A stretch of 64,000 bases of DNA from Dehalococcoidia bacterium (lineage in GTDB: Bacteria; Chloroflexota; Dehalococcoidia; Lucifugimonadales; Australimonadaceae): NCBI GenBank assembly GCA_965206315.1, contig OZ242210.1, positions 258,822-322,821 of the forward strand, given 5' to 3'. Both the position numbers and the translations under genes were made by a program. Under the pieces are notes generated by a model. That model was not told where the DNA came from and ran no database searches. It saw only the letters and a list, made by a program, of their open reading frames with translations. Positions 5,545 to 64,000 of the stretch are shown piece by piece (positions within the stretch are counted from its first letter, which is position 1; every line of letters begins with the position of its first letter).

Positions 5545-5847
5545 CTACTGCGCCCCCCTGTAGAACAGATCAGATATGAGGTCCAACCTTTCGATGAAGA
5601 GCGAGATGGCGTAGAACCCAAGCAGCAGGAAGAGGACCGCCCCTGCGTAGAGCGGGATACGGATGCGGCGAGCCACATGGGCGGGGATGTCGCGCGAGAC
5701 AGCCAGGGACGGAATCATGCCGTGGGCAAGGAGCATGCACGCTCCGAAGCCAAGGGCCGAGCCGAGGAGGAACCAGAGCGCTGCAAGGAGATCAGCAGCA
5801 GCAGCCCAGTCGGATGCCGTCATGAACGTGGGGTCTGGGCCGGTCAT
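5545..5847 (-). CDS. small two-TM membrane protein of unknown function, upstream of the ACIII-like operon
   Basis: 100-aa ORF with two hydrophobic helices, same strand, 17 nt upstream of the cytochrome gene. No recognisable family. Confidence 0.45.
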   Translation of the reverse strand: MTGPDPTFMTASDWAAAADLLAALWFLLGSALGFGACMLLAHGMIPSLAVSRDIPAHVARRIRIPLYAGAVLFLLLGFYAISLFIERLDLISDLFYRGAQ

Positions 5848-6031
5848 TCACATCGTCCGAGGGCCTGGGTTTCAAACAGCGTCACCGGAAGCCCTGCCTG
5901 CTTCTGGATTGGGCGGAGAGACGCTGCGTGAACATACCATCGGCGATCCTCCCGCCAGGAAGAGCACGTTAAACCACCTTCAGGGCAGGTGTCAACAGTT
6001 TGTGATGAATTTCGCACACGGGCTGGACGAC

Positions 6032-6059
6032 TTGCAATCTACCGCTGTCCGCCTACAAT
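6032..6059 (+). promoter_or_regulatory. sigma-70-like promoter (TTGCAA-16 nt-TACAAT)
   Basis: -35 TTGCAA at 6032-6037 and -10 TACAAT at 6054-6059 with a 16-nt spacer, about 40 nt upstream of the 6102 ORF. Confidence 0.35.
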
Positions 6060-6101
6060 TATCCGCCGTGGCCGGCCTGGCCGCAGGAGCGTAGCGGACG
6101 A

Positions 6102-6317
6102 ATGGCAGGATCGAACGAAACGACCGCCCGGAACACCGTGACCCGACGCGGCTTTCTGAAACGGGCAGCCCTGGTGGGAGCCGCGGCGTCGGCTCTGGGC
6201 ATCCTCTCCAGAGGACGCATCGGCGGCATCGGGCAGCAAGGGCGCTCCACACCTGCCGACCTCCCCGGCGCAGGCTCCATCTTCCAACCCAGAGGCGACA
6301 CGCGGATCCAGCGCTGA
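6102..6317 (+). CDS. small ORF (71 aa) with a twin-arginine signal peptide and only about 40 mature residues; possibly a gene remnant
   Basis: MAGSNETTARNTVTRRGFLKRAALVGAAASALG is a textbook Tat leader. AGGAG lies 11 nt upstream. No homolog recognised. Confidence 0.3.
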   Translation: MAGSNETTARNTVTRRGFLKRAALVGAAASALGILSRGRIGGIGQQGRSTPADLPGAGSIFQPRGDTRIQR

Positions 6318-6407
6318 GCGCCACGAATCGCGCGTATTCCTGCTGATTCGCAAGGAACGCGTCGCAGATTTCCCCTCTCACGGCGATTAACATTCCTCTA
6401 ATCGTTG

Positions 6408-6457
6408 ACGATGCATGAATCCTCTTATACGATGCATCCGCATCCTGACGATGCGCC
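6408..6457. promoter_or_regulatory. three direct repeats (G/T)ACGATGC(A/G) phased exactly 20 bp apart, upstream of the Lrp/AsnC gene; candidate operator array
   Basis: gacgatgcat at 6408, tacgatgcat at 6428, gacgatgcgc at 6448. TTGACG at 6405 overlaps the first repeat. Confidence 0.35.
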
Positions 6458-6491
6458 ATAGCATGCTCAGCGCTCGTGTGCGGAGGACGTC

Positions 6492-6935
6492 TTGGACAAC
6501 ATCGACCGACGGATCATCGAAACCCTCCAACAGGACGGCCGCGCCTCTCACGCGCAGATGGCCCGCGAGTTGGGGCTGAGTGAGGGAACCGCCCGCCGCC
6601 GTCTTGCCAAGCTGCTGCAGGACAAGGTCATCAAAGTCGCCGCGATCCCGGACCCGGAACGCCTCGGCTACCACACGTCCGCGTTCATCGGGCTGCAGGT
6701 GGACCCGTCACGAGTTGAAGCCGTGGCAGACGAACTGGCCGAGCTGGCGGAGGCGGAGCACGTCTCCATCACCACCGGCAGTTACGACATCTTCATCTGG
6801 GTCAACCTGACGAGCTCCGAGGCTCTCGCCTCGTTCCTGCACAACAAGGTGGGCATCGTGGAGGGAATCCGGCACACAGAGACGTTCGTCAGTCTGGAGA
6901 CACGCAAGCGCGCCCTCGGCGCCGGGATGGTGTAG
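6492..6935 (+). CDS. Lrp/AsnC-family transcriptional regulator
   Basis: LDNIDRRIIETLQQDGRASHAQMARELGLSEGTARRRL HTH followed by a RAM/AsnC_trans_reg domain. TTG start with GGAGGA 4 nt upstream. Confidence 0.9.
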   Translation: MDNIDRRIIETLQQDGRASHAQMARELGLSEGTARRRLAKLLQDKVIKVAAIPDPERLGYHTSAFIGLQVDPSRVEAVADELAELAEAEHVSITTGSYDIFIWVNLTSSEALASFLHNKVGIVEGIRHTETFVSLETRKRALGAGMV

Positions 6936-6988
6936 CAACCCTCGTCGGTTGACACATACCGGGGCTCTCCGTAGCATGAAATGACCGG

Positions 6989-7064
<76 letters not shown>

Positions 7065-7092
7065 GGCTGTAAGGGGCCCGGTGCTGGCACGA

Positions 7093-7167
7093 GCGGAAGT
7101 GGCTCAGGGGTAGAGCGTCTCCTTGCCAAGGAGAAGGTCGCGGGTTCAAATCCCGTCTTCCGCTCCA
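7093..7167 (+). tRNA. tRNA-Gly (anticodon GCC), CCA encoded
   Basis: Acceptor stem gcggaag/cttccgc, anticodon stem-loop tctcc-ttGCCaa-ggaga, T-arm gcgggttcaaatcccgt, 3' tcca. Confidence 0.95.
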
Positions 7168-7276
7168 GCTTCATCCCATACATCGCCCAAACCCCATCGA
7201 TCTGAGCTTCAGGCCTGAGCAGCGTGTTCTGCCGACAGGCCCGGCTACAGCACGCTCCGCTATAATCCTGACCAGC

Positions 7277-7362
7277 GCCGAAGTGGCGGAATGGTAGACG
7301 CGACGGTCTCAAAAACCGTTGAGGGCAACCTCATGCCGGTTCGAATCCGGCCTTCGGCACCA
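7277..7362 (+). tRNA. tRNA-Leu (anticodon CAA), long variable arm, CCA encoded
   Basis: Acceptor stem gccgaag/cttcggc, anticodon loop ctCAAaa, variable arm gagggcaacctc, T-arm gccggttcgaatccggc. TATAAT at 7261-7266 lies 10 nt upstream. Confidence 0.95.
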
Positions 7363-8600: not shown

Positions 8601-10016
8601 TCAGCGCTCGCCCGGGTCCCGCGCGTCAGATCTGCTTTCGTTCCCGTCGCCGAGCCGGTACATCGACGCCACGAGGTTGCCGGCCACGACGAAGGCCATG
8701 TAGGCGAAGACAGTCATCGCATGCCACGGGTAGCCCAGGTTCAACCGGTCCAGGGCCTCTTCGCGGGAGAAGCCCAACGCGGCGAAGTCGATCTCCCACG
8801 AGTTCAACAGGTTATGGTCCGGCAGGACCATCGGCAGGTCGGGAGAGACGTATACCGCGATAATGGTGAGCAGGCCCAATACCGACGAAACGATCGCTGC
8901 CGCCAGCGTGGTAGACAGCAGAAACTGCCTGTCTCTCTCGCTGGGGTTAGTGGACGGGTCCTGGACAACCAGCAATGCGATGAAGAGGACCGCTGTCGCG
9001 GGCATCAGCACCCCGAGCTGTATCCAGACCGAGGCGTTCGAGATCACGAGGACAACGGCGTACACGAAGCCCACCGGCGGCAGGGCTGTCCAGACCGACC
9101 GCTGGATGATGCTGCCTTCGCCGCCGCGGCGCGGGTGTTGCCGCTGCCACAGGAACTGGAACATCAGCCCGGCAGATGCGGCGAGCGCCAGGTTCACCAG
9201 GAGGGCGAGCAGGAAAGGCACGTAAGTGCCGACGGAGTCCCCGACCCGATAGAGGGCGTAGTGGTCCATACCCAGAGGCGCGAACTGCAACAACGGCGTG
9301 CTGAGCACAACGAACAGCGTGATCCAGAAGAACTCCCTGTTGGGGACCGTGCGGTCCGGGAGCAGGAACCCCTGGGTCACTACCAGCGCCGTCGCAAGGA
9401 CAACGTAGAACGCGGGGGTCCAGATGTTCTCCCAGTTCAGGAATGACAGGGCGTACCCGGAACCCGCGATAGCAACACCCAGTGGCAGGCACCTGAGGAA
9501 TACGAATCGCGCCCAGCCTTGCAGCAGCGGGGGCGCGGTCGCAGTTGCGGCGGTGCCACCTCCCCTGGGGTCCGTCGGTCCATGCTCCTCGCCCGGCCTC
9601 GGTTCATATCCGGGGTTCTGGCTGCTTCCGCCACTGATGGCCATGGAGGAAGCCGTCTGGAGGTCGGGCGCGAGGCCTGCCAGCAGGATCAGCCCCGCCA
9701 CTTCCGTCGGCGACAGCCCCAGGGCCATCCCAAAGACCTGCAGCCGGCGCACGGTGGGACGTGTGGCCCCGGACTCCCACCGGGAGACGGTGGCATGGCT
9801 GAACCGCTCCGCGTACTCCTCGTCTATCGACGCCATTAGCCGGAGCAGCGCTTCCTGGCTCAGGCCGCGTTGGCCGTCTTCCGCGAGGAAGGACTCTCGG
9901 TAGGCCCTCATGGCGAACCCTGCCTGGGCCGCTCTCAGCCGTTGCTCATCGACCTCGGCTGCCATCGTCAGAAACTCACCGTAGGTAGTGTTCCTGAGAG
10001 GTCCGTTCGTGGGCAT
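8601..10016 (-). CDS. membrane protein with an N-terminal XRE/Cro-type HTH domain, divergent from the giant adhesin gene
   Basis: LSQEALLRLMASIDEEYAERFSHATVSRWESGATRPTVRRLQVFGMALGLS is a Cro/C1-type HTH. It is followed by a Gly/Pro linker and about 8 hydrophobic helices. Start placed at the ATG at 10014-10016 (9965 is an alternative). The longer ORF to 10343 runs into the tandem repeat. Confidence 0.7.
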   Translation of the reverse strand: MPTNGPLRNTTYGEFLTMAAEVDEQRLRAAQAGFAMRAYRESFLAEDGQRGLSQEALLRLMASIDEEYAERFSHATVSRWESGATRPTVRRLQVFGMALGLSPTEVAGLILLAGLAPDLQTASSMAISGGSSQNPGYEPRPGEEHGPTDPRGGGTAATATAPPLLQGWARFVFLRCLPLGVAIAGSGYALSFLNWENIWTPAFYVVLATALVVTQGFLLPDRTVPNREFFWITLFVVLSTPLLQFAPLGMDHYALYRVGDSVGTYVPFLLALLVNLALAASAGLMFQFLWQRQHPRRGGEGSIIQRSVWTALPPVGFVYAVVLVISNASVWIQLGVLMPATAVLFIALLVVQDPSTNPSERDRQFLLSTTLAAAIVSSVLGLLTIIAVYVSPDLPMVLPDHNLLNSWEIDFAALGFSREEALDRLNLGYPWHAMTVFAYMAFVVAGNLVASMYRLGDGNESRSDARDPGER

Positions 10017-10049
10017 GCAGACATGGTATCGGATGCAACTTCGGCGAAC

Positions 10050-10490
10050 AGCATGTCCGGCAACTGTTGCGGAGACCCTGAACGAACGCCATGCCATGCC
10101 CGTACATCGCCTCCGCTGACCGCGCACATAACCACTCATGGACTGTGCACAACGCGCCGGGTGCAGGCGTGGGCTTGCGCACATCGCAGGAGTGGAAGAG
10201 TCCGAAACTGCGCATGTACAGACTCCCGGGAAGGCATCGGTCAGGCTGTTGCGGATTTCAGGGCGGCTAGGCCGCTCCGCTATCGCCTCGGTGTTTGCCC
10301 GGCGCAGAGACCGCTGAGTAAACGCCACGCCGTGCCCGCACACCGTATCCGCTGACCGCGCACATAGCCCCTAATGGACTGTGCGCAACGCCCCGGATGC
10401 GGGCATCGATTCCCGAACAGCGCAGGAGTGAAACAGTCCGAAACCGGGCATGTACAGACTTCCAGAGACGTAGCGGTCAGGCTGTGGGCG
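10050..10490. repeat. intergenic tandem direct repeat, about 2.2 copies of a 235-bp unit
   Basis: Unit 10072-10255 aligns with 10307-10490 (period 235). Shared blocks include ccgctgaccgcgcacata, atggactgtgc, cgcaggagtg, agtccgaaac, gcatgtacagact and cggtcaggctgt, with scattered substitutions and small indels. A partial copy lies at about 10050-10071. Confidence 0.8.
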
Positions 10491-42459: not shown

Positions 42460-44077
<1,618 letters not shown>

Positions 44078-44089
44078 TCACGATTCCTG

Positions 44090-44123
44090 ACCTTGCCAGC
44101 CTCACGGGACTGGATTTAAAGGT
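44090..44123 (-). promoter_or_regulatory. PyrR-binding anti-antiterminator hairpin
   Basis: The reverse strand reads ACCTTTAAATCCAGTCCCGTGAGGCTGGCAAGGT and contains the UUUAA...UCCAG...GAGGCU...AAGG elements of PyrR binding loops. GCTGGCAAGG can alternatively pair with the terminator 5' arm (antiterminator). A TATACT -10 candidate lies at 44151-44156. Confidence 0.65.
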
Positions 44124-44198
44124 CGGTCGCGGTGCAACACCGCAACGCAGAGTATAGGACGTCGCCACCCCGCCGCGCAACCGCCCCGGGCATCCGTC

Positions 44199-45066: not shown

Positions 45067-46491
45067 TCACGGGTCCCCGACCGTACGGATATTGATGTCG
45101 TTCGGTATGCCGCCCGCGCCGATGCGCGTCGCTCCGAAAACGACGACACGATCGCCGGGGGCGACTGCGCCGCGTTCGCGGAGCGTGGAGAACGCCTGCA
45201 GCACGCGCGCCTCGGTCCGGTCGGAGAGGTCCGCGTGGATGGGGCGCACGCCGTAATAGAGCGCCAGCCCGTTGCAGACCGCGGGGTCAGGCGTGAATGC
45301 GTAGACGGGAGCCCTTGGCCGCAGGTGCGAGATCGTCTTCGCCGTGTGGCCGGACTGCGTGAACACCACCAGCGCCTCGGCCCGCAGCTGCTCCGCTACG
45401 AAACGCGCGGCTTCGGCCATCGCGTGGGACTCGTCGTGTGGATGCTTGACGTGGAACGGTGTCTCGGCCGTCTCCGCCTGCAACGCGATGCGGCCCATCG
45501 TCGCTATGGCTTCCACGGGATACTGCCCGATAGCCGTCTCCTCCGAGAGCATCACCGCGTCCGTGCCGTCGAGGATCGCGTTGGCGACGTCGCTCGCTTC
45601 CGCCCTCGTCGGGACGGGACTGTCCATCATCGACCCCAGCATCTGGGTAGCCGTGATGACCGGCTTCCCTGCCTCGTTCGCCTTGCTGATGATGAGTTTC
45701 TGCAGCAGTGGCACCCGCTCCGGTGACACCTCCACGCCGAGGTCGCCCCGCGCGACCATGATGCCGTCCGATTCTTCGATGATCTCATCGAGGTACTCGA
45801 TCGCCATCGGATGCTCGATCTTCGAGATGATGGGCGACGCTGAGCGCATCTTCTGCAGCAGCTCCCGGCAGGAGCGCACGTCGTCGCCGCTGCGGACGAA
45901 ACTCATCGCGACGTAGTCCACGCCGATGAACACGCCGTAAGCCAGGTCCTTCCGGTCCTTCTCGGTGAGCGGATCGGCCGTAACCCTGGAGTCGGGCAGG
46001 TTGACTCCCTTGTGCGACGTCAGCACGCCGCCTGCAACGACGGATGCGCGCAGGTCGCTGCCGTTCACTTCGGCGACGCGCAACACCAGGTTCCCGTCCG
46101 CTATGAGGATGCGGTCGCCCCGGCTGACGTCGCTAGCGAGCCGGGGGTACGGGATCGCAACCGAGCCGTGCGTGGTTGGCACGTCCTCGGACACGACGCG
46201 CACCACCTCCCCCGATGTGAGCCGGACACCGTCGGGGTCCTCCACAACGCTTGTGCGCAGACGCGGCCCCTGGATGTCCTGCATCAGGGCGACGGTGCGC
46301 CCGATCTCATGGCTGATCGCCTTGATGCGCGGAACGGTCTGCTCCAGTTCCGCATGCGTGGCGTGCGAGAAGTTGAGTCGGAAGACGTCCACCCCTGCCG
46401 CGATGGCCTGCCGCAGATGCTCATCCGAGGCGACCGCAGGCCCCAGCGTGGCGACGATCTTGGTGTGGCGCGGAAATCCGTTCATGCGCAT
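45067..46491 (-). CDS. pyk: pyruvate kinase
   Basis: TKIVATLGPA, NFSHA, MVARGDLGVE and MLSEETA motifs. Start set at the ATG at 46489-46491 (46485 is an alternative). Confidence 0.93.
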   Translation of the reverse strand: MRMNGFPRHTKIVATLGPAVASDEHLRQAIAAGVDVFRLNFSHATHAELEQTVPRIKAISHEIGRTVALMQDIQGPRLRTSVVEDPDGVRLTSGEVVRVVSEDVPTTHGSVAIPYPRLASDVSRGDRILIADGNLVLRVAEVNGSDLRASVVAGGVLTSHKGVNLPDSRVTADPLTEKDRKDLAYGVFIGVDYVAMSFVRSGDDVRSCRELLQKMRSASPIISKIEHPMAIEYLDEIIEESDGIMVARGDLGVEVSPERVPLLQKLIISKANEAGKPVITATQMLGSMMDSPVPTRAEASDVANAILDGTDAVMLSEETAIGQYPVEAIATMGRIALQAETAETPFHVKHPHDESHAMAEAARFVAEQLRAEALVVFTQSGHTAKTISHLRPRAPVYAFTPDPAVCNGLALYYGVRPIHADLSDRTEARVLQAFSTLRERGAVAPGDRVVVFGATRIGAGGIPNDINIRTVGDP

Positions 46492-46533
46492 AGATGATAG
46501 CCCCCGCCGGTTCCCATCAGGAACCACCTAACT

Positions 46534-46842
46534 GTGACATCCGCCCCTTACGCGGTCGCCCCTGCCTCCGCTACGCTGGACGCATGGCTTTCCCGCAGAC
46601 CCGACCTATAGACCGCGTCTATGGCTCGCAGCCCCACCCATCGACAGCGCCTATGGCTTGGGCTCGAACTTTTCAAAACAATGGCATTGTTGACATTCTT
46701 GATACTCCGAAGCCCGGGAAGCAGGCCACGGCCATGAAACAGGCTCGATCAAGGATCTCAAGGATGCCAAACGCGGTGACCGTTTCACTCGTGATGGACC
46801 GATCAAGGATGCCAGCTATGGGGCAGGTTGGCATTCTTGATC
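46534..46842 (+). repeat. dispersed intergenic repeat, copy 1 (homologous to the reverse complement of 61819-62155)
   Basis: gtgacatccgccccttacgcggtcgcccc, cgctacgctgga, ctatag, catcgacagcgcctatggc, ttgacattcttgat, gggaagcaggccacggcc and cactcgtgatg occur in the same order as in the rc of the second locus. Internal 14-mers of the form TTGRCATYCTTGAT lie at 46690, 46757(rc), 46801(rc) and 46829. Confidence 0.75.
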
Positions 46843-47063
46843 CGGCCCGCCCCATCCGCCTGGACCTGCACGGGGTACAGGCAAGCCGCAGGCCGACGTA
46901 CCACCGAACACTGTTAGTGGGATTAGGCGATGGATGTGGTAAAGTTGCGCAAGGATGGCGCATCCCGTTGAGCATCCGCCCCGAGTGCGATGCGCCATGA
47001 TTCGGGTAAGGCCGCTATCGGCGCGCTCCCCGCATCATCATGACATACACGGAGGGAGAGCAC

Positions 47064-48575
47064 ATGTATGACGTGCTCGTCGTTGGCGGCGGGATAGCCG
47101 GGCTCCGCGCCGCGGAAGCGGCGAAGGGAGCAGGCGCGTCGGTCGCGCTGATTACCCAGTCGCACCCCACCCGCAGTTACTCGGTTACCGTGCAGGACGG
47201 CATCAACGCGCCGGAAAGCCCGGAGGGGCGTGACAGCCACGTCAGCGAAACGCTGGCAGCGGGCGCGGGACTGAACGTCGCATCGGTGGTCGAGAGCGTC
47301 TGCCGCGAGGCGGCGGGCCTCGTCGAGGAGCTCGACCGGATGGGCGTGCCCTTCAACCGCGTCGGCTCCGTCATAGACCGGGCCAGCGTCTCCGGCGACG
47401 GTAGCTCCCGGACTGTCTACGTCAACGACATAACCGGCCTCGCGGTCACACAGACCCTGTGGGAGCAGGCCATCGGCGCCGGCGTGGACATCTACGAAGA
47501 GTGGATCGTCCTCTCGCTGGTCATAGAGAACGGAGAATGTGCGGGAGTCGTCGCGCTCCAACTCGCCACCGGTGAGGTGGAGCCCTTCCGTGCGAAGGGC
47601 GTCGTGCTCGCGACCGGCGGGCCGCGCCGCGCATTCGAACCCAGCACTGCATCCCTGCTTTGCAGCGGCTCCGGCATCGCGCTGGCGTACAGGGCCGGTG
47701 CAGCGCTCGCGGACATGGAGTTCGTCCAGTACTACCCCGCGGTGCTGAACGGCAGCCACCTCGCCCTCTCCCCGCTCCTGCTTGGAGCTGGCGCGGCACT
47801 GGAGGATGGCAACCTCCGGCTCAACGGCGCTCTGGACGACGCGCAGGTGGAGGCCCGGTTCCCCGACACGCTGCACCGCGTGGAAGCGCTCTCTGGCGTC
47901 AACATGCTCAGGGAGCCCGCGCCGGTGCATTCCGCGATGTCCCGGCTGCTCGGCGGCATCGACGTAACGGTGCAGGGGGAGTCGTCTCTGGCAGGGCTCT
48001 TCGCGGCCGGTGAGTGTGCGGGCAACGGTTTCCACGGCGCGCAGGGGTTGGACGGCAACTTCCTCCTCGCGTCGATCGCCTCCGGCAAGAGTGCCGGGCT
48101 GGCGGCAGCGGCGCAGGTACGCCCGTTCGGCGACAGCGCGGTTGGCGAGCAGGCCGCGGGCGCTGTGCGCTCGGAGTTGGACGCCGCGCTGGGCCGTCCC
48201 GGCGGCGCGCCCGTCGCCGCCCTGCGAAGCGAGCTTGCTTCGCTCATGCATGAGAAGGTCGGCGAGAGCCGCAACGCCGGTGGCCTGAACGAGGCCCTCC
48301 AGCGCATCCGGGCGATGCGCGAGGAGCACGCCCAACTCGGCGCGGGCTCCAGTGCCCGCGACTACAACTTCGGTCTCGTCCAGTACCTCGAACTGGGAGC
48401 GCTGCTGGACGTCGCGGAAGCCATCGCCGTCAGCGCCTCGGAGCGCACCGAGAGCCGTGGCGTACACCAACGGACCGACCACCCGAAACAGGACGACGCT
48501 CAGAGCACCCGCCTCCAAGTCACGAAGGGCGAGAGTGGAGCGCAGGTGAGCAGGGAGACCACGCCCGCCTCGTAG
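47064..48575 (+). CDS. fumarate reductase/succinate dehydrogenase-type flavoprotein, non-covalent-FAD variant
   Basis: YDVLVVGGGIAGLRAAEAA dinucleotide fold. The FAD-histidyl site reads HPTRSYSVTVQDGINA (Tyr where SdhA/FrdA have His). GGAGGGA SD before the ATG at 47064. Confidence 0.85.
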   Translation: MYDVLVVGGGIAGLRAAEAAKGAGASVALITQSHPTRSYSVTVQDGINAPESPEGRDSHVSETLAAGAGLNVASVVESVCREAAGLVEELDRMGVPFNRVGSVIDRASVSGDGSSRTVYVNDITGLAVTQTLWEQAIGAGVDIYEEWIVLSLVIENGECAGVVALQLATGEVEPFRAKGVVLATGGPRRAFEPSTASLLCSGSGIALAYRAGAALADMEFVQYYPAVLNGSHLALSPLLLGAGAALEDGNLRLNGALDDAQVEARFPDTLHRVEALSGVNMLREPAPVHSAMSRLLGGIDVTVQGESSLAGLFAAGECAGNGFHGAQGLDGNFLLASIASGKSAGLAAAAQVRPFGDSAVGEQAAGAVRSELDAALGRPGGAPVAALRSELASLMHEKVGESRNAGGLNEALQRIRAMREEHAQLGAGSSARDYNFGLVQYLELGALLDVAEAIAVSASERTESRGVHQRTDHPKQDDAQSTRLQVTKGESGAQVSRETTPAS

Positions 48576-48615
48576 GGGCGTAGCGAGCGGAGATCCGCAG
48601 AGAGGAGACGCGCAG

Positions 48616-49581
48616 ATGGAGATCACCTTCAAGTTCCAGCGCGGAGGCACGCGGGCACAGCCCGAGTACGTCGACTACCAGATAGACGTGCCGCCTGAGA
48701 TGACCGTCTTCGACGCGCTCGTGGCCGTGCGCGAGACCCAGGACGGCACGCTCGCGTTCCGGGGCAACTGTTCCGTCGGCTTCTGCGGCGACTGCACCCT
48801 GAGCGTCAACGGCGCGCAGAAGGTCACCTGCCTCGTCACCGTCGGCAAGACGCAGAAGGACGGCGTCATCACCGTCCAGCCCATCCGGTACGCGCCGGTG
48901 GAGAAAGACGTGATGCACGACATGCGGAAGTTCCTCTGGGACAAGGTGGACGTCTTCGCCAAGGGCGTCGTTCCCAACGGCGGCCACCCGGTTACGGACG
49001 AGGAACTGCGTCCCGTCCGTAAGGCGATGCGCTGCACCACCTGCGGTCTCTGTGACGAGGGGTGCACGGTGATCGACGTGAACCTCGACTTCTACGGCCC
49101 TGCCGCTCTCACCAAGCTTTACCGCTTCGCGTTCGACCCCCGCGACGGCATCACCGCCGAGCGGCTGCGACAGGGCAGCGAGATCCACGGCATCTGGGAC
49201 TGCGTGCACTGCTGGGAGGCGACCGAGCACTGCCCGTTCGGCCTCGAGCCCACCCACCTCATCATGGACACGCGGGACCGCGCCATCGCGCACGGCATCA
49301 AGTCCGGCTACGGCAACAAGATGCTGGAGCGCCACTACGACGCGTTCGAGGAGTCCATCTCCCGCAAGGGCTGGCTCGACGAGCGCTCCGTCGCACTGCA
49401 GACCTACGGCGGCCTCATCAAAGGCGGAATCAAGACGCTCCCGCTCGGCCTTCGCGCCCTCCGGAAGGGGAAGGCAACCCTGAAACCCCACTACAAGCGG
49501 CCGGGCGCTGACCGGATACGCAAGATATTTGACCGATACAACCGCTCCAACGCGGGTCTGCGAAAGGAGAAGCAGCGATGA
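48616..49581 (+). CDS. succinate dehydrogenase/fumarate reductase iron-sulfur subunit-like protein
   Basis: 2Fe-2S motif CSVGFCGDCTLSVNGAQKVTC, then CTTCGLCDEGC and CVHCWEATEHCP cluster motifs. 321 aa, longer than classical SdhB. Confidence 0.85.
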   Translation: MEITFKFQRGGTRAQPEYVDYQIDVPPEMTVFDALVAVRETQDGTLAFRGNCSVGFCGDCTLSVNGAQKVTCLVTVGKTQKDGVITVQPIRYAPVEKDVMHDMRKFLWDKVDVFAKGVVPNGGHPVTDEELRPVRKAMRCTTCGLCDEGCTVIDVNLDFYGPAALTKLYRFAFDPRDGITAERLRQGSEIHGIWDCVHCWEATEHCPFGLEPTHLIMDTRDRAIAHGIKSGYGNKMLERHYDAFEESISRKGWLDERSVALQTYGGLIKGGIKTLPLGLRALRKGKATLKPHYKRPGADRIRKIFDRYNRSNAGLRKEKQR

Positions 49582-59824: not shown

Positions 59825-61192
59825 CTACCCGACGACGCGCCAAGTGGTACCGGAGGGCGAATCCGTGAGCTCGATGCCCATGGCGGTGAGCCGGTCGCGG
59901 ACAGCGTCAGCGCCAGCGAAGTCGCGGGCGGCACGCAGGGCGGCACGCTCCTCGACGAGCGCCTCCACCCGCGCAGCGAGGTCCGCATCGACCGAGGCCT
60001 CGCGCTCCTCCAGCGTCAGGCCGAGCACGCCGGTCAGCTCGCGCAGCGTCTCCTGCGCGGAGGCAACGTCCGCTCCCTCGGCCGAGCCCCGGTTGATGTC
60101 GCGCGCGAGGTCGAAGAGGGCGGCGACAGCCTGGGGGCTGTTGAGGTCGTCGTCCATCGCCTCGATGAAGCGAGCCCGAGTCTCGGAGGCATCGAGCGCG
60201 TCGCCAGCGCCGGCGTTGGACTCAGCCGACGCCGCCTGCCTAAGCCGTCCTGCGGCGCGCTCAGAACCAGCGAGCGCCTCGTCCGAGTAGTAGCCGGGGC
60301 TGCGGTAGTGGGCGTTGAGCACGGAGAGGCGGATGGCGTCCGAGGAGTAGCGTTCCAGCGCGTCGCTGATGGTGACGAGGTTGCCGAGCGACTTGCTCAT
60401 CTTCTGCGCGTCCATGTTCAGCAGACCGTTGTGCAGCCAGAAGCGGGCGAACGGGCGCATACCGGTGAACGCCTCGCTCTGGGCAATCTCGTTCTCGTGG
60501 TGTGGGAAGATCAGGTCCTGCCCGCCGCCGTGGATGTCGATGCTCTCGCCGAGGTAGCGCAGCGCCATCGCGGAGCACTCGATGTGCCAGCCGGGGCGTC
60601 CGCCGCCCCACGGGCTCTCCCACGACGGCTCGCCGGGTTTGGCGGACTTCCAGAGGGCAAAGTCCATGGGGTGCTCTTTCTGAACGCCCGGCTCGATGCG
60701 CGCGCCCGCCCGCATCGCATCCAGCGAGCGATGGCTGAGCTTACCGTACTGCTCGTCGCTGCGGACGCGGAAGTAGACGTCGCCGTTGGACTCGTAGGCA
60801 TGGCCGGAATCGATGAGGCCGGAGATGAGCTCGATGATCTTCGGCACTTCCTGGGTGGCGCGGGGATACTCGTCGGCCTCGCGGACGTTGAGGGCGGCCA
60901 TGTTCGCGAAGTAGTCAGCGATGTGCTGCTCGGCGAGCGCCTCGACGGTCGTGCCCTCCTGGACGGCGCGGTCGATGAGCTTGTCGTCGATGTCGGTGAA
61001 GTTCTGGACGCGGCGGACCTTGAAGCCCCGGAACTCCAGGTAGCGGTGGAGCACGTCGAAGACGATGTAGCTCATCGCGTGGCCTACGTGCGCGGAGGAG
61101 TACGGGGTGACGCCGCAGACGTAGATGCGGACCTCGTCACCGGCGGGTTCGAAATCGCGCTTCTCGCCGGTGAGGGTGTCGGAGAGTTTCAT
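59825..61192 (-). CDS. cysS: cysteine--tRNA ligase
   Basis: YVCGVTPYSSAHVGHA (HIGH) and KMSKSLGN (KMSKS). The start ATG at 61190-61192 overlaps the ispF stop (ATGA). Confidence 0.95.
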   Translation of the reverse strand: MKLSDTLTGEKRDFEPAGDEVRIYVCGVTPYSSAHVGHAMSYIVFDVLHRYLEFRGFKVRRVQNFTDIDDKLIDRAVQEGTTVEALAEQHIADYFANMAALNVREADEYPRATQEVPKIIELISGLIDSGHAYESNGDVYFRVRSDEQYGKLSHRSLDAMRAGARIEPGVQKEHPMDFALWKSAKPGEPSWESPWGGGRPGWHIECSAMALRYLGESIDIHGGGQDLIFPHHENEIAQSEAFTGMRPFARFWLHNGLLNMDAQKMSKSLGNLVTISDALERYSSDAIRLSVLNAHYRSPGYYSDEALAGSERAAGRLRQAASAESNAGAGDALDASETRARFIEAMDDDLNSPQAVAALFDLARDINRGSAEGADVASAQETLRELTGVLGLTLEEREASVDADLAARVEALVEERAALRAARDFAGADAVRDRLTAMGIELTDSPSGTTWRVVG

Positions 61193-61677
61193 GGATTGCC
61201 GTCTGTGATGGATGCCACGGCTATGGCCGCTACGCCCGCCTCGGAGCCGGTGTACCCGAGGCCATCCTCGGTGGTGGCCTTGATGCTCACAGCGGAGAGT
61301 CCCACTCCAAGCGAGGCGGCGATAGCCCACCGCATCGCCGGGACGTACTCCGAGAGACGAGGACGCTGGAGAACGATTGTAGCATCGACGTTGACCGCGC
61401 TCCATCCGGCCCTGCGGAGCATGGCGACGGTGCGCTCCAGAAGCGACGTGCTCGTGACGCCCTTCGGGACGGAGGGGTCGTCCGGCTTGAAGTGCGTGCC
61501 GATGTCACCGAGGGCCGCCGCGCCGAGCAGGGCGTCGATGATGGCGTGTGCGACGACGTCGCCATCGCTGTGGCCGGCGAGCCCGCGCTCCGACGGGATG
61601 CGTACGCCGCCAAGCGTGAGCGGCACACCTGCCTCCAGTGCGTGTGCGTCGTAGCCTATGCCGAATCGCGTGGCCAT
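61189..61677 (-). CDS. ispF: 2-C-methyl-D-erythritol 2,4-cyclodiphosphate synthase
   Basis: FGIGYDAHAL, GHSDGDVVAHAIIDALLGA, GDIGTHF. 162 aa. Confidence 0.95.
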   Translation of the reverse strand: MATRFGIGYDAHALEAGVPLTLGGVRIPSERGLAGHSDGDVVAHAIIDALLGAAALGDIGTHFKPDDPSVPKGVTSTSLLERTVAMLRRAGWSAVNVDATIVLQRPRLSEYVPAMRWAIAASLGVGLSAVSIKATTEDGLGYTGSEAGVAAIAVASITDGNP

Positions 61678-61818
61678 CGCGTCATCCTCCCTCGCGGTGT
61701 GTCCGTGAGTTTAGCAGCGGGCAGGCGTCACCGCCTCTCCCGCCGGCTGTTGCACCCGCGAGCAAGGCGGCGACCAAGGCGTCAGGCCCAGGAGCCAACA
61801 GGGGCAAGGCTGCCACCC

Positions 61819-62155
61819 TTGACGTCTTGATCAGCAAGGCCGTGGCCTGCTTCCCGCACCAAGGCGGCAAGGCGGGTGGGGGTGTGCAATCCAACAGCCC
61901 AATCCAAGAGCCGCACATCACGAGTGCGTCCATGCGGTTTTCTGTTCTTGGATCCTTGCCCGGCGAGGCCACGGCCTGCTTCCGTGTTCAAGAATCCAAG
62001 GGCAGAACGAGAAGGGGGTGTGCAGTCTTCCCGCCATAGACGCTGTCGATAGCAGCGGGGGGAGCTATAGCAACGGTCGATGAGCGAGGCGGGGCGCGCA
62101 GTCATCCATCCAGCGTAACGGGCGTGGGGGCAACCGCGTAAGGGGCGGGTGTCAC
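61819..62155 (-). repeat. dispersed intergenic repeat, copy 2 (inverted relative to 46534-46842)
   Basis: The rc of 62101-62155 is gtgacacccgccccttacgcggttgcccccacgcccgttacgctgga (2 mismatches in the first 30 nt against 46534). The shared downstream blocks run through cactcgtgatg (rc of 61915-61925). Contains ttgacgtcttgatc (61819) and GGAAGCAGGCC(AC/GT)GGCC at 61838 and 61967. Confidence 0.75.
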
Positions 62156-62202
62156 TGGGTTACATGGCGTACGTCGCCAGCGAGGAGCAAGCAGAGTCTG
62201 GG

Positions 62203-63087
62203 CTACGCGGGAGATTCTGTTGTGTCCTCCTCAGCCCAAGCTTCTTCCAGTTCCAAGGCAGCACTTTTCCACGCCTGCGCAATTCTAACCTTCCCCGCCA
62301 AGTACGCGTTCGCAGCGTACTCCCATGCCAGCGCTATATCAGCACGGCCTTTATCGTGTTCTTCAACAGCCTGACGGAGCGGAAACCATATCTCTTCTGC
62401 TGCTGGTGATTCTGCAGCCCTCATCCAAGTTTTGGCCCTAGATTCCAGACTAGAGGCTTCATCTGTATCTCCTACAGTTCTTACTTCAATAACTCGATGC
62501 CACGATGCGATTGCTTCTTCTAAGCAAAAGCAGGCGTACATTTCTCTAGGGTCATCTGGAGATATCGTTTCTTGAACGATATCTCTCTGCTTCTTCAGCA
62601 AGTTGACCTGACAATCAATTCTGTTTTTCACGGCATCAAGCCACGCCTTCAAGTTTTCAATGAAGTTAACTTCTCTAAAGTGGATTGCCCATCGTCCAGC
62701 TGCATCACCTTGAAAGGTATAGACATAAGGTAACTCTTGAGGTTGGACCCATACCGTGGCTGCCTCGGCATCACTTTCAACCCATTTGGCTACATGCGCC
62801 CATGCCGACTCAATAGATATTAACTCGCCAGCTAATAGGATGGCCGATTCTTCTTCACGCATTCGTCTATGATACTGAGCTCTCGCTCTCGCTATACCTT
62901 TGCGCACTTCTATTGCAAATTCCATCCTACCGGCTTCACGTTCCAAGTCTTCGGCTAACGCAGCGTTGTTCTGCTGCCATGCCATAGTGGCAGCCTCCCA
63001 TGCCCCTGTAGCGCTAACTTTACCCTCGGAGCGAGCTATTACAACACGCCACTCTGCGTCCTTTGCTCTTTCACATTCGTAACTCAC
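62203..63087 (-). CDS. hypothetical Trp/Ala/Glu-rich helical protein encoded in a low-GC island
   Basis: 294 aa, GTG start with GAGGAA 5 nt upstream and 2 nt after the preceding stop. Recurrent AW-containing helices (TGAWEAATMAWQQ, ESAWAHVAKWV, IALAWEYAANAY, IAQAWKSAALELEEAWAEE). No family recognised. Confidence 0.55.
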   Translation of the reverse strand: MSYECERAKDAEWRVVIARSEGKVSATGAWEAATMAWQQNNAALAEDLEREAGRMEFAIEVRKGIARARAQYHRRMREEESAILLAGELISIESAWAHVAKWVESDAEAATVWVQPQELPYVYTFQGDAAGRWAIHFREVNFIENLKAWLDAVKNRIDCQVNLLKKQRDIVQETISPDDPREMYACFCLEEAIASWHRVIEVRTVGDTDEASSLESRAKTWMRAAESPAAEEIWFPLRQAVEEHDKGRADIALAWEYAANAYLAGKVRIAQAWKSAALELEEAWAEEDTTESPA

Positions 63088-63089
63088 TG

Positions 63090-63791
63090 TTATTCCTCAT
63101 CTTCTATCATAGCGCCCAAGAGTTCTGGTTGCTTGTCTTCAATTGCCTGTCGCATTGCCCGAATTTCTCCTATCACCGCAAAGGCGCCTTCACTAGTTCC
63201 TAAGCCGAACTCTCCGGCAATCGTTTCGATAAAGCCTATATGCCGCTCTATCTCACCTAGGATGGAATAGGTCAAAGCACTTGCTATTTCATGGTCTTCT
63301 CTTTCATATTGGGTATACAATACTATCTTATTCTCCCGCACAAGCATATTCATGCTCGGATTCCTTGGATGTGCATTCTCACTTAGCGGTCCATATCTCT
63401 TTAGCCATTGTTCACCCTCAGGAAGGGTTCGAGCCATAGATGCGAAAGATAGCCGGCCTATCCATTTAATCTTTTTGCCATCTAGTAGCATATCGCGTAC
63501 TTCAGGGCTGTTCGTTATGTAGCGACCCACCAAGTGAGACTCCATGGCCATGCGAACCAGTGCCAGAGATTGCGAATAGTAGCTGCGCTCTAGCAGTAAC
63601 GCTGCAGCAGTCAAGGAGTGAAATCCCCGGATGGCAAGAAGTAACTGTGCATAATGTGTCTTTGACAATTCTCCGGGTGTAATACGTTGCAGGCCAGTTG
63701 CAATCTGCTCAATGCCGATTCTCAACACTCTCATCTCCATTGAGTGATCCACGTAGATATCAGAAATCGCAACTTCTTCAATATCATGCAT
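63090..63791 (-). CDS. hypothetical helical protein in a low-GC island; start uncertain because the frame is open back into ispD
   Basis: About 233 aa from MHDIEEV.... Contains RMAMESH (Rx5H, HEPN-like spacing, weak) and LSENAHP. GC content is clearly lower than the flanks. Confidence 0.45.
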   Translation of the reverse strand: MHDIEEVAISDIYVDHSMEMRVLRIGIEQIATGLQRITPGELSKTHYAQLLLAIRGFHSLTAAALLLERSYYSQSLALVRMAMESHLVGRYITNSPEVRDMLLDGKKIKWIGRLSFASMARTLPEGEQWLKRYGPLSENAHPRNPSMNMLVRENKIVLYTQYEREDHEIASALTYSILGEIERHIGFIETIAGEFGLGTSEGAFAVIGEIRAMRQAIEDKQPELLGAMIEDEE

Positions 63792-63845
63792 AAATCCCTG
63801 ATAGTAGATGGGGCGGTCAAACTTTTGCTTGAACTCTTCTCTGTT

Positions 63846-64000
63846 CAGCGCATCTGCAATCACCAGGTCCTCGGGTGTTGTGACCTTGATGTTGCTACGC
63901 GCGCCGTCGAAAGTGCGCACCTCGACGCCGGTGCGCTCCACCATCGCGGCGTCGTCGGTCACGTCGGCAGCGACCTCGGCGTGGGCTCGTTCGAGCACGT
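63846..64000 (-). CDS. ispD: 3' end of 2-C-methyl-D-erythritol 4-phosphate cytidylyltransferase (partial; continues beyond the right edge; no in-frame stop before the low-GC ORF)
   Basis: ...VERTGVEVRTFDGARSNIKVTTPEDLVIADAL matches the conserved IspD C-terminal NIK(V/I)TTPEDL..A motif. Lies upstream of ispF-cysS on the same strand. Confidence 0.7.

Follow-up and report, generated by a model that had tools for sequence, protein, structure and literature searches.

A stretch of 64,000 nucleotides from a Dehalococcoidia bacterium (contig OZ242210.1), referred to here as the window, carries between ispD and ispF a low-GC segment which is a compositionally foreign, truly extra accessory cassette in a high-GC chromosome. 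The segment holds two open reading frames (ORFs). The first is not a gene of its own; it continues ispD in frame and adds a helical tail to IspD. The second, ORF2, encodes a Trp/Ala/Glu-rich helical-repeat protein of 294 amino acids (aa). The structural and evolutionary picture, a strain-variable cassette at the 3′ end of ispD, probably exchanged by recombination and consisting of the fused tail and the optional ORF2, has good support; combined with a conflict-type role it is the best explanation that we can offer, and this combination is put forward tentatively. The window reaches 147 nt into ispD, and the N-terminal part of the gene, like any second ispD copy of the genome, lies beyond the sequence covered. 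The related loci are all metagenomic, the known set comprising four tail lineages and seven members of the ORF2 family, and the slot between ispD and ispF was surveyed by a hidden Markov model (HMM) search of 88 loci together with exact look-ups.

The low-GC segment and the extension of IspD

The preliminary description of this DNA had reported a low-GC, self-contained operon of two genes between ispD and ispF, and the drop in GC content was borne out by sliding GC and tetranucleotide composition alike. The GC content is 0.44-0.52 across about 62200-63850 and 0.62-0.73 on either side. Segment 62158-63855 has a GC content of 0.482, against a mean of 0.665 (standard deviation 0.020, minimum 0.615) in the other 1,698-nt windows of the 64 kb, which served as the composition background (z = -9.0), and its tetranucleotide distance to that background is 0.737, where the others have a mean of 0.241 and a maximum of 0.390. 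It is the sole strong low-GC island across the 64 kb. All the relevant genes are on the minus strand, in the 5′ to 3′ order ispD 3′ end, low-GC continuation of the frame, ORF2, non-coding DNA, ispF and cysS (table 1).

Table 1. Features of the ispD-ispF region of the window
Feature	Position	Strand	Basis or remark
3′ end of ispD; last ~50 codons of the IspD domain	63852-64000	-	Pfam IspD; GC content at third codon positions (GC3) 0.80
DUF5677-like helical extension, type A tail, 253 aa	63090-63851	-	open frame from ispD; TAA 63092-63090
GAGGAA, Shine-Dalgarno-like, for ORF2, inside the end of the fused ORF	63093-63098	-	sequence reading
ORF2, 294 aa, GTG start	62203-63087	-	ORF list
45-nt junction, uncertain origin	62158-62202	-	from ORF2 stop to where homology to relatives resumes
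Native strain-variable GC-rich spacer	61742-62157	-	repeat modules common to relatives
Conserved ispF leader	61678-61741	-	blastn, 84-95% identity to L003-L006
ispF, separate, unfused	61189-61677	-	Pfam YgbB, E = 4.5e-58

The extent of the foreign DNA follows from comparison with relatives. Host relatedness was gauged by the identity of CysS, the nearest group being the one whose CysS is 92-94% identical to that of the window; the nearest relatives compared are the Dehalococcoidia metagenome-assembled genomes (MAGs) L003-L007, and the farther ones are L010, L011 and L013. The IspF of the window is 93-95% identical to that of L003-L006, whose chromosomes are about 2.9 Mb long with about 66% GC, and the segment is missing from five to six close relatives whose flanks are 86-92% identical at the nucleotide level. 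Homology to L003-L007 covers 64000-63856 and 61741-58001; it ends at 63856-63863 and resumes at 62157 or 61741, and the module just past the relatives' ispD stop matches 62157-62127 of the window. The comparison with empty sites that had been proposed earlier thus came out in favour of an insertion, the nearest relatives lacking the 1,698 nt and having a plain ispD, which ends 2-7 codons after the domain and is followed by a variable spacer of 130-610 nt; in the more distant L010, L011 and L013 the layout is the textbook one, with the ispD stop overlapping the ispF start. The DNA specific to the window is 62158-63855, that is, the low-GC part and a junction of 45 nt, and it takes the place of the last few ispD codons. 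The previously noted separation of about 2.2 kb between the two genes is correct as a distance (2,174 nt from the end of the IspD domain at 63852 to the ispF start codon at 61677), but only about 1.7 kb of it is inserted, the remaining GC-rich 420-460 nt beside ispF being native spacer. As had also been observed, the ORF list contains no integrase or transposase within the visible island. No direct or att-like repeat beyond 4 nt flanks the cassette, and neither protein matched phage records, plasmid records, IMG/VR or metagenome contigs of JGI; of the two marks of a mobile element, a recombinase with flanking repeats or similarity to phages or plasmids, the cassette bears neither.

Residues 4-51 of the first ORF, which has 302 codons in the window, match positions 168-218 of the 221 positions of Pfam IspD (E = 5.9e-10, 39.7 bits, cut-off 27 bits). 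The frame is open to the window edge, and there is no stop codon between this match and the DUF5677 match described below. Because the frame is open and the IspD match is followed by no stop before the low-GC part, the first ORF is an in-frame C-terminal extension of ispD. The separate gene of 233-302 codons in the preliminary description is therefore replaced by a domain fused onto IspD, and the self-contained two-gene operon is given up with it. The ispD 3′ end has a host-like GC3 and 84-92% DNA identity to ispD of L003-L008, down to 63856-63863. Followed codon by codon, GC3 drops right after ...TTPEDLV, from 0.80-0.93 to about 0.5 and below, and the tail has a GC content of 0.46 and a GC3 of 0.46.

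The same junction is present in other proteins. The low-GC part, used as a database query, retrieves a single protein, P0003, which is 54% identical and likewise an IspD fusion with the same junction (...KVTTPDDVEMAQALLSEEFREKVDR... in P0003, ...KVTTPEDLVIADALNREEFKQKFDR... in the window); the tails of the fusion proteins P0003 and P0012, joined at that point, are 52-54% identical to the tail of the window. The full-length fusions P0010/P0013 (442 aa) and P0012 (457 aa) contain the complete IspD domain, P0010 reaching 218.7 bits on the ispD model TIGR00453 (cut-off 181.3 bits). Conservation extends to the linker peptide EEFKQKFDRPIYYQGF / EEFREKVDRSVYFDGF, which precedes any Met that the proteins share, and no internal start is conserved across the four tail lineages. 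A separate start at the ATG at 63791, which would give a protein of 233 aa, was rejected, as this codon is not conserved in L087, L009 and L088. To judge from the reading frame, the tail would be translated as part of IspD, in one polypeptide with a helical tail of 253 aa.

ORF2 begins with a GTG 2 nt past the stop of the fused ORF. The minus strand reads GAGGAA (63098-63093), TAA (63092-63090), CA and GTG (63087-63085), and the spacer of 2 nt between the two ORFs stands as previously described. The GAGGAA, 6 nt before the GTG, had been taken for a Shine-Dalgarno sequence of the pair; it serves ORF2 only. The GTG is the real start, because homologues also conserve the N-terminal residues encoded ahead of the first ATG. 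The GC3 of ORF2 is 0.43.

Two rare protein families

The tails fall into two types, type A in the window and in L087/L001 (P0003/P0012), and type B in L009 and L088/L083 (P0010/P0013). The type B tails share 67% identity among themselves and 29-36% with type A, and the junctions of the two types coincide to within about 5 codons on IspD. In the window, residues 119-167 match Pfam DUF5677 (PF18928) with 28.4 bits against a cut-off of 27.1, over profile positions 5-53 of 166 only. The sister tails P0010 (26.9 bits) and P0012 (24.7 bits) remain slightly under the cut-off. In all three proteins the alignment is limited to profile positions 5-53 (up to 59), short of the coverage looked for in a family member, and the remaining ~150 tail residues have no DUF5677 match, so the link to the wider DUF5677 family is that of one borderline, partial Pfam match. 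In the literature searched, DUF5677 was encountered in two papers only, and no mention of an IspD fusion of this family was found. The AlphaFold2 (AF2) model of the tail is all-helical and of modest confidence (predicted local distance difference test, pLDDT, 64). Foldseek comparison of this model with the PDB returned generic helical bundles and G protein-coupled receptors with TM-scores of 0.30 or less, the pLDDT of 64 weakening this fold test; sequence searches of the PDB were empty, no hits were obtained in PADLOC-DB 2.0 (for the homologues of the tail and of ORF2 either), PHROGs or NCBIfam, and a scan of GTDB genomes with the type A tail gave no match.

The string RMAMESH, pointed out earlier as an Rx5H motif, fits the Rx4-6H motif of HEPN domains and is present in type A (window, P0003), but it is lost in type B (L009, P0010), where RCSRECM or RCSKECM has Met in place of His. 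Of the HEPN motif only R100 and E104 are invariant across both types; together with H161-P162 of the SENAHP string they are among the few invariant polar residues of the tails. No HEPN-clan Pfam matches the tail at E <= 1. An assignment of the tail to HEPN was rejected: the motif is not conserved, HMM and fold comparisons lend no support, and the alignment by hhalign with a HEPN-like protein of locus L002 (described below) has a probability of 0.2.

ORF2 belongs to a very rare family. Its profile matches 7 proteins among 1.84e9 representatives, and no match was found in Pfam, PADLOC, PHROG or NCBIfam. Sequence searches of the PDB gave chance-level similarity only (E >= 0.029). The AF2 model, all alpha and built from only seven sequences, is confident (pLDDT 91, predicted TM-score 0.87), and Foldseek searches of the PDB and BFVD gave best TM-scores of about 0.2-0.3, the top matches being designed helical repeats. 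No ligand-binding or enzyme fold was recognised. The preliminary description had recognised no family in either ORF; this stands for ORF2, and for the first ORF it has to be qualified by the DUF5677 match, while both encoded families are indeed rare and undescribed.

Both proteins are real and constrained, because the ratio of nonsynonymous to synonymous substitution rates (dN/dS) is low, the reading frames are intact in every lineage and the ORF2 model is confident. For type A (L001 against L087) the value is 0.35, for type B (L009 against L088) 0.12 and for ORF2 (L085 against L002) 0.38; the adjacent IspD tail has 0.09 and IspF 0.12-0.33. The tail and ORF2 evolve faster than their housekeeping neighbours.

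The same slot in related chromosomes

The states of the slot and the surroundings of the ORF2 relatives are given in table 2. Within the group with CysS identity of 92-94%, the window has a type A tail and ORF2, L088 has a type B tail, and L003-L007 have neither. L008, with an ORF2-like gene only, and L009, with a type B tail only, have IspD proteins that are 89% identical. Whether a slot is empty or holds type A, type B or an ORF2-like gene alone is not a matter of host relatedness.

Table 2. Arrangement of the tail and of ORF2-like genes in the window and in related loci
Locus	Arrangement
Window	type A tail fused to IspD, followed by ORF2
L087 / L001	type A tail, 52-54% identical to that of the window; 457-aa fusion; ispD adjoins sucCD, not ispF; without ORF2
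L009	type B tail; fused ORF overlaps ispF start
L088 / L083	type B tail; 442-aa fusion
L008	plain ispD, then a 368-aa ORF2-like gene overlapping the ispD stop
L084	ispD, ORF2-like gene and ispF tightly packed; the ORF2-like gene begins directly behind the ispD stop and runs into the ispF start
L085	ORF2 relative flanked by a methylase/Mrr-type fusion and an AAA_25 ATPase
L086	ORF2 relative in the vicinity of an IS1595 transposase
L002	ORF2 relative, 197 nt downstream of a protein whose HEPN match is sub-threshold

Two aspects of this distribution are highlighted. First, the window is the only locus with both the tail and ORF2, and the check for co-occurrence that had been proposed yielded no second one: the tail is without ORF2 in three lineages (L087/L001, L009 and L088/L083), ORF2 relatives are without the tail in five places (L008, L084, L085, L086 and L002), and no ORF2 remnants are found beside the other fusions. 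Second, the tail is attached to IspD in all four of its lineages, and ORF2-like genes stand in the ispD-ispF slot in three of seven cases (window, L008 and L084). Outside the slot, in L085, L086 and L002, the ORF2 relatives are single low-GC genes in unrelated neighbourhoods; in L085 the relative is a single low-GC3 gene among host-like neighbours.

Several of these loci have features of their own. In L002 the protein upstream of the ORF2 relative (158-1039, 293 aa, GC3 0.50) carries the string RHATTNSH and matches HEPN below threshold (E = 0.0035, 17.9 bits, cut-off 22 bits); by hhalign it has no similarity to the IspD tail. In L087/L001 the neighbours of ispD are sucCD and a gene of the MR_MLE family. 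In L001 the type A fusion is followed (5600-7100) by about 1.5 kb of DNA with 57-64% GC and internal repeats, whose translations repeat 'LIL(T/A)FSPQGRRDL' and which contains no convincing gene; the contig has 6x coverage and a frameshift inside ispD. The spacer of the window has no homology to this repeat-rich DNA. Insertion sequence (IS) elements of the IS110, DDE_Tnp_1 and IS1595 families are situated within 1-2 kb of three of the related loci, outside the cassettes (L087 6834-7778, L088 5783-6778, L086 4204-5139).

How the cassette may have moved is best seen in L088 (18x coverage) and its variant L083, in which a second, partial copy of the ispD 3′ end, 428 nt long and 87.6% identical, follows the fused gene. 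The two copies in L088 (8223-8650 and 9691-10118) form a partial tandem duplication, and L083 has the same structure. The downstream one of the two, called as an IspD fragment of 124 aa (9769-10143), ends with the usual ispD tail and stop codon, and its GC3 is 0.91. The module GTGACAC.CGCCCCTTACGC recurs after the L088 cassette (9399), after the displaced ispD fragment (10629) and after ORF2 of the window (62155). The displaced copy points to transfer by recombination among related chromosomes. A fragment from a related high-GC genome, consisting of an ispD 3′ part, the tail and the repeat module, would have recombined in with ispD as one anchor, and the resident ispD 3′ end would have been pushed downstream by it. 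The upstream ispD copy of L088 is slightly closer to ispD of the L008/L009 group, as import together with the type B cassette would have it. More generally, recombination with ispD and the downstream repeat or spacer as anchors would carry cassettes from one related chromosome to another, with no need of an integrase or transposase.

In the window the first element of the native spacer is the dispersed repeat module GTGACACCCGCCCCTTACGCGG, and about 130 nt are directly repeated within the spacer (D1, D11, D13). L003-L007 have the 5′ module conserved directly behind the ispD stop, and L088 has it twice. In L003-L007 the ispD-ispF spacer (about 5650-6000 of each locus) is made of shared short modules, among them CAGGAGTGCAGTGGC..AATGGC.CA..TTGGC.CAC, GTCAGAGGTGAAATGAGA.GGAATGAGAAGAAATGAGACAG and repeats of GCTCATTCC. 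Because the spacer of the relatives varies from 130 to 610 nt and is built from shared modules, the slot is unstable in cassette-free chromosomes too. A second copy of the modular intergenic repeat, with the modules GTGACAYCCGCCCCTTACGCGGT..., ATCGACAGCGYCTATGGC, ATTCTTGA..GGAAGCAGGCCRYGGCC and ACTCGTGATG, is located at 46533-46830 (+) of the window, where it fills the gap between the ORFs 45067-46527 and 46923-48650. This repeat may be an element resembling miniature inverted-repeat transposable elements (MITE) or repetitive extragenic palindromes (REP), and may provide the homology needed on the right-hand side for cassettes to be exchanged. The 45-nt junction (...GCCATGTAACCCAGTGACAC in the window, ...GCGATGGTGTCTTTAGCTCAGTGACAC in L003) is weakly similar to the corresponding sequence of the relative and may be a decayed remnant of the original ispD tail.

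An RNA element in the GC-rich, non-coding stretch of 525 nt between ORF2 and ispF (62202-61678) was considered and rejected: Rfam gave no hit at gathering score or at E <= 1 for the spacer, and its fold is no more stable than that of shuffled sequence (z = -0.5). No promoter-like or terminator-like site was detected in the spacer or on the coding (minus) strand. The ispF leader reads CCGCTGCTAAACTCACGG...GGAGGATGACGCG-ATG, and TGCTAAACT within it would be a putative promoter by its sequence, although a consensus scan found no sigma-70 site.

The GC3 of both families is 0.40-0.54 in every host, compared with 0.80-0.95 in host genes. The ispD piece which travelled with the L088 cassette is high-GC, with a GC3 of 0.91; therefore cassettes circulate among high-GC genomes and yet stay AT-rich. 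Recombining bacterial genes tend towards higher GC (PMC4450053). The low GC3 could thus reflect a long life as rare accessory DNA, for example by escape from GC-biased gene conversion, rather than a recent low-GC donor: rare accessory DNA would seldom meet a homologous partner and would drift to an AT-biased mutational equilibrium. The same low GC3 could instead be due to selection for rare codons in the tail.

Three other features of the window are mentioned for completeness. The listed cysS ORF of 526 aa (59825-61405) overlaps ispF by 217 nt and is over-extended; in the relatives L084 and L088 cysS is 455-456 aa long, with an overlap of 4 nt between its start and the ispF stop. In the window cysS probably begins at the ATG of 'MKLSDTLTGEK...' near 61192. 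A PyrR-binding site (RF00515, 61.6 bits, 44011-44126, minus strand) and a cluster of three tRNAs (Phe-GAA, Gly-GCC and Leu-CAA, 6989-7362) are ordinary and unrelated to the cassette.

Possible roles of the cassette

What function does the cassette perform? A conflict-type role, in defence, abortive infection or addiction, is possible, with appreciable doubt, and it is favoured because the distribution is patchy, the alleles are deeply divergent, the proteins evolve faster and there are loose links to defence-like neighbourhoods. Patchy spread, divergent alleles and evolution faster than that of IspD are typical of conflict systems. The neighbourhood hints are the weak HEPN-like protein beside the ORF2 relative of L002, and the methylase/Mrr-type fusion and AAA_25 ATPase beside that of L085. 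In addition, DUF5677 is among the domains enriched near defence-associated serine recombinases in Bacillota (PMC12632615). The active or sensing part would then be the tail, produced only in attachment to an essential enzyme that is expressed constitutively, and ORF2 would be an optional binding partner (a modulator or antidote) and not an obligatory antitoxin.

Several points weigh against a role in conflict. No homology links either protein to toxicity or defence in PADLOC, PHROGs, NCBIfam, the PDB or Foldseek searches, and the ORFs that protected E. faecalis against phage did not include the DUF5677 ORF that was tested there (PMC12632615). Only a handful of loci are known. A toxin that needs ORF2 as its antidote is unlikely, because three lineages have the tail without ORF2. 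Finally, the constant attachment of the tail to IspD, the share of ORF2-like genes in the ispD-ispF slot and the overlap of the ORF2-like gene of L084 with the ispF start would fit a role in the methylerythritol phosphate (MEP) pathway equally well.

Such a metabolic role is the next explanation, and a less likely one. Here the tail would be a regulatory, substrate-binding or scaffolding domain of IspD, ORF2-like proteins would be adaptors of the IspD and IspF steps, and the cassette would tune isoprenoid synthesis. Besides the three observations just named, the occurrence of two tail types of about 30% identity at one junction suggests an old, maintained fusion, both families are under purifying selection, and IspD tolerates a C-terminal fusion partner in IspDF. 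On the other hand, the nearest relatives do without the tail and the alleles do not follow the host phylogeny; ORF2 relatives are also found as single low-GC genes in unrelated neighbourhoods; the dN/dS of the tail is about 4x that of the adjacent IspD tail; and a ligand-binding or enzyme fold is missing from the results.

The conflict-type role can also be taken further. In an unlikely, bolder version IspD would be the fixed handle of an intracellular polymorphic module, in which effector or sensor tails circulate by recombination, with ORF2-like proteins as free-standing partners or antidotes, the whole being built onto a housekeeping gene. A further possibility, by analogy with the nucleotidylylation of HEPN toxins by MNT proteins, is that the cytidylyltransferase domain might control its own tail.

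The preliminary description had seen in the locus the typical footprint of a toxin-antitoxin, abortive-infection or other defence module. In its classical form, a HEPN-like RNase toxin with the Rx5H motif and ORF2 as antitoxin would have landed together beside ispD. This is doubtful to the point of being improbable. The distance of 2 nt between the fused ORF and ORF2, the Shine-Dalgarno sequence of ORF2, the fit of RMAMESH to Rx4-6H in type A and the position of the L002 ORF2 relative 197 nt 3′ of a sub-threshold HEPN protein (E = 0.0035) all agree with a pair; but the pair is confined to the window, the supposed toxin lacks a conserved start codon and is in every case joined to IspD, and its motif His is Met in type B (RCS[RK]ECM). 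Moreover, no HEPN-clan Pfam, no PADLOC family and no HEPN structure among the Foldseek matches supports a toxin, the tail profile aligns with the L002 protein at an hhalign probability of 0.2, and PHROGs, NCBIfam, phage, plasmid and IMG/VR sequences contain nothing similar. The earlier reading is upheld in part only: the foreign composition, the lack of mobility genes and the rarity of both families stand, but neither a HEPN nor a classical toxin-antitoxin assignment is supported.

More improbable still is a neutral passenger, that is, acquired DNA which removed the ispD stop codon, its tail and ORF2 being tolerated, useless and on the way to loss. The absence of the cassette from close relatives, its foreign composition, the lack of any assignable function and the extreme rarity of both families in databases would suit a passenger, but dN/dS is well under 1 in both families, frames are intact everywhere, the fusion point is kept across tails of about 30% identity, and the ORF2 model is well packed and confident. 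An assembly artefact, in which a chimeric join or an indel error produced the insertion or the fusion, is most improbable: the relatives do come from long-read MAG projects and L001 does have a frameshift inside ispD at 6x coverage, but both cassette flanks are syntenic with relatives and the in-frame junction is found in independent assemblies and samples (L087, L009 and L088, the last at 18x), on which grounds a chimera was ruled out.

If the tail is functional on IspD, a core enzyme of the MEP pathway exists in at least three forms (plain, with tail A and with tail B) in closely related wild bacteria, swapped by recombination, which would be an unusual way to carry and express accessory functions. 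The two very rare, undescribed families, the IspD-linked DUF5677-like tail and the Trp-rich helical-repeat protein ORF2, are candidates for conflict or for pathway regulation in uncultured soil Dehalococcoidia. In addition, the locus offers a natural and uncomplicated example for studying how accessory DNA remains AT-rich over long periods in GC-rich genomes, and for what reason.

Among known systems, the closest analogy in form is the polymorphic toxin locus; the likeness is one of resemblance, not membership. Polymorphic toxin and immunity cassettes (CdiA-CT/CdiI, Rhs-CT/RhsI) have swappable C-terminal domains and displaced orphan 3′ modules. In the same way the ispD locus combines a conserved body with an exchangeable, compositionally deviant C-terminal domain, with divergent tail types at a fixed IspD junction, a displaced 3′ fragment of the carrier in L088 and a small gene directly following in the window, and it would spread by recombination without mobility genes of its own. 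Unlike those toxins, the carrier is a cytoplasmic essential enzyme, no secretion or delivery domain is found by Pfam or NCBIfam, and no toxin fold was recognised; ORF2 is missing in three of the four tail-bearing lineages and also occurs alone, so that not every C-terminal domain is followed by a candidate immunity gene, and empty alleles with a plain ispD are common.

The remaining comparisons are more partial. Variable hotspots between core genes gather defence systems in E. coli and Pseudomonas aeruginosa, and the slot flanked by ispD and ispF-cysS likewise differs in content between close relatives; unlike in those hotspots, the cargo is 0.65-1.7 kb, includes no PADLOC family and no integrase or transposase, and is in frame with the upstream core gene. 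Pfam DUF5677 includes the tail of the window by its gathering score (28.4 against 27.1 bits), but the match covers the first third of the profile only and the sister tails fall below the cut-off. With HEPN toxins and HEPN-MNT pairs the tail shares an all-helical domain, R-x5-H in type A and the coupling to a nucleotidyltransferase; it differs in the His not conserved in type B and in the lack of an HMM or fold match, and the cytidylyltransferase fold of IspD differs from that of the Pol-beta-type MNT antitoxins. The bifunctional IspDF is an IspD with a C-terminal fusion partner (NCBIfam NF006899), and here too IspD bears a C-terminal partner in the ispD-ispF region; unlike in IspDF, the partner is not IspF, and ispF is intact, separate and downstream.

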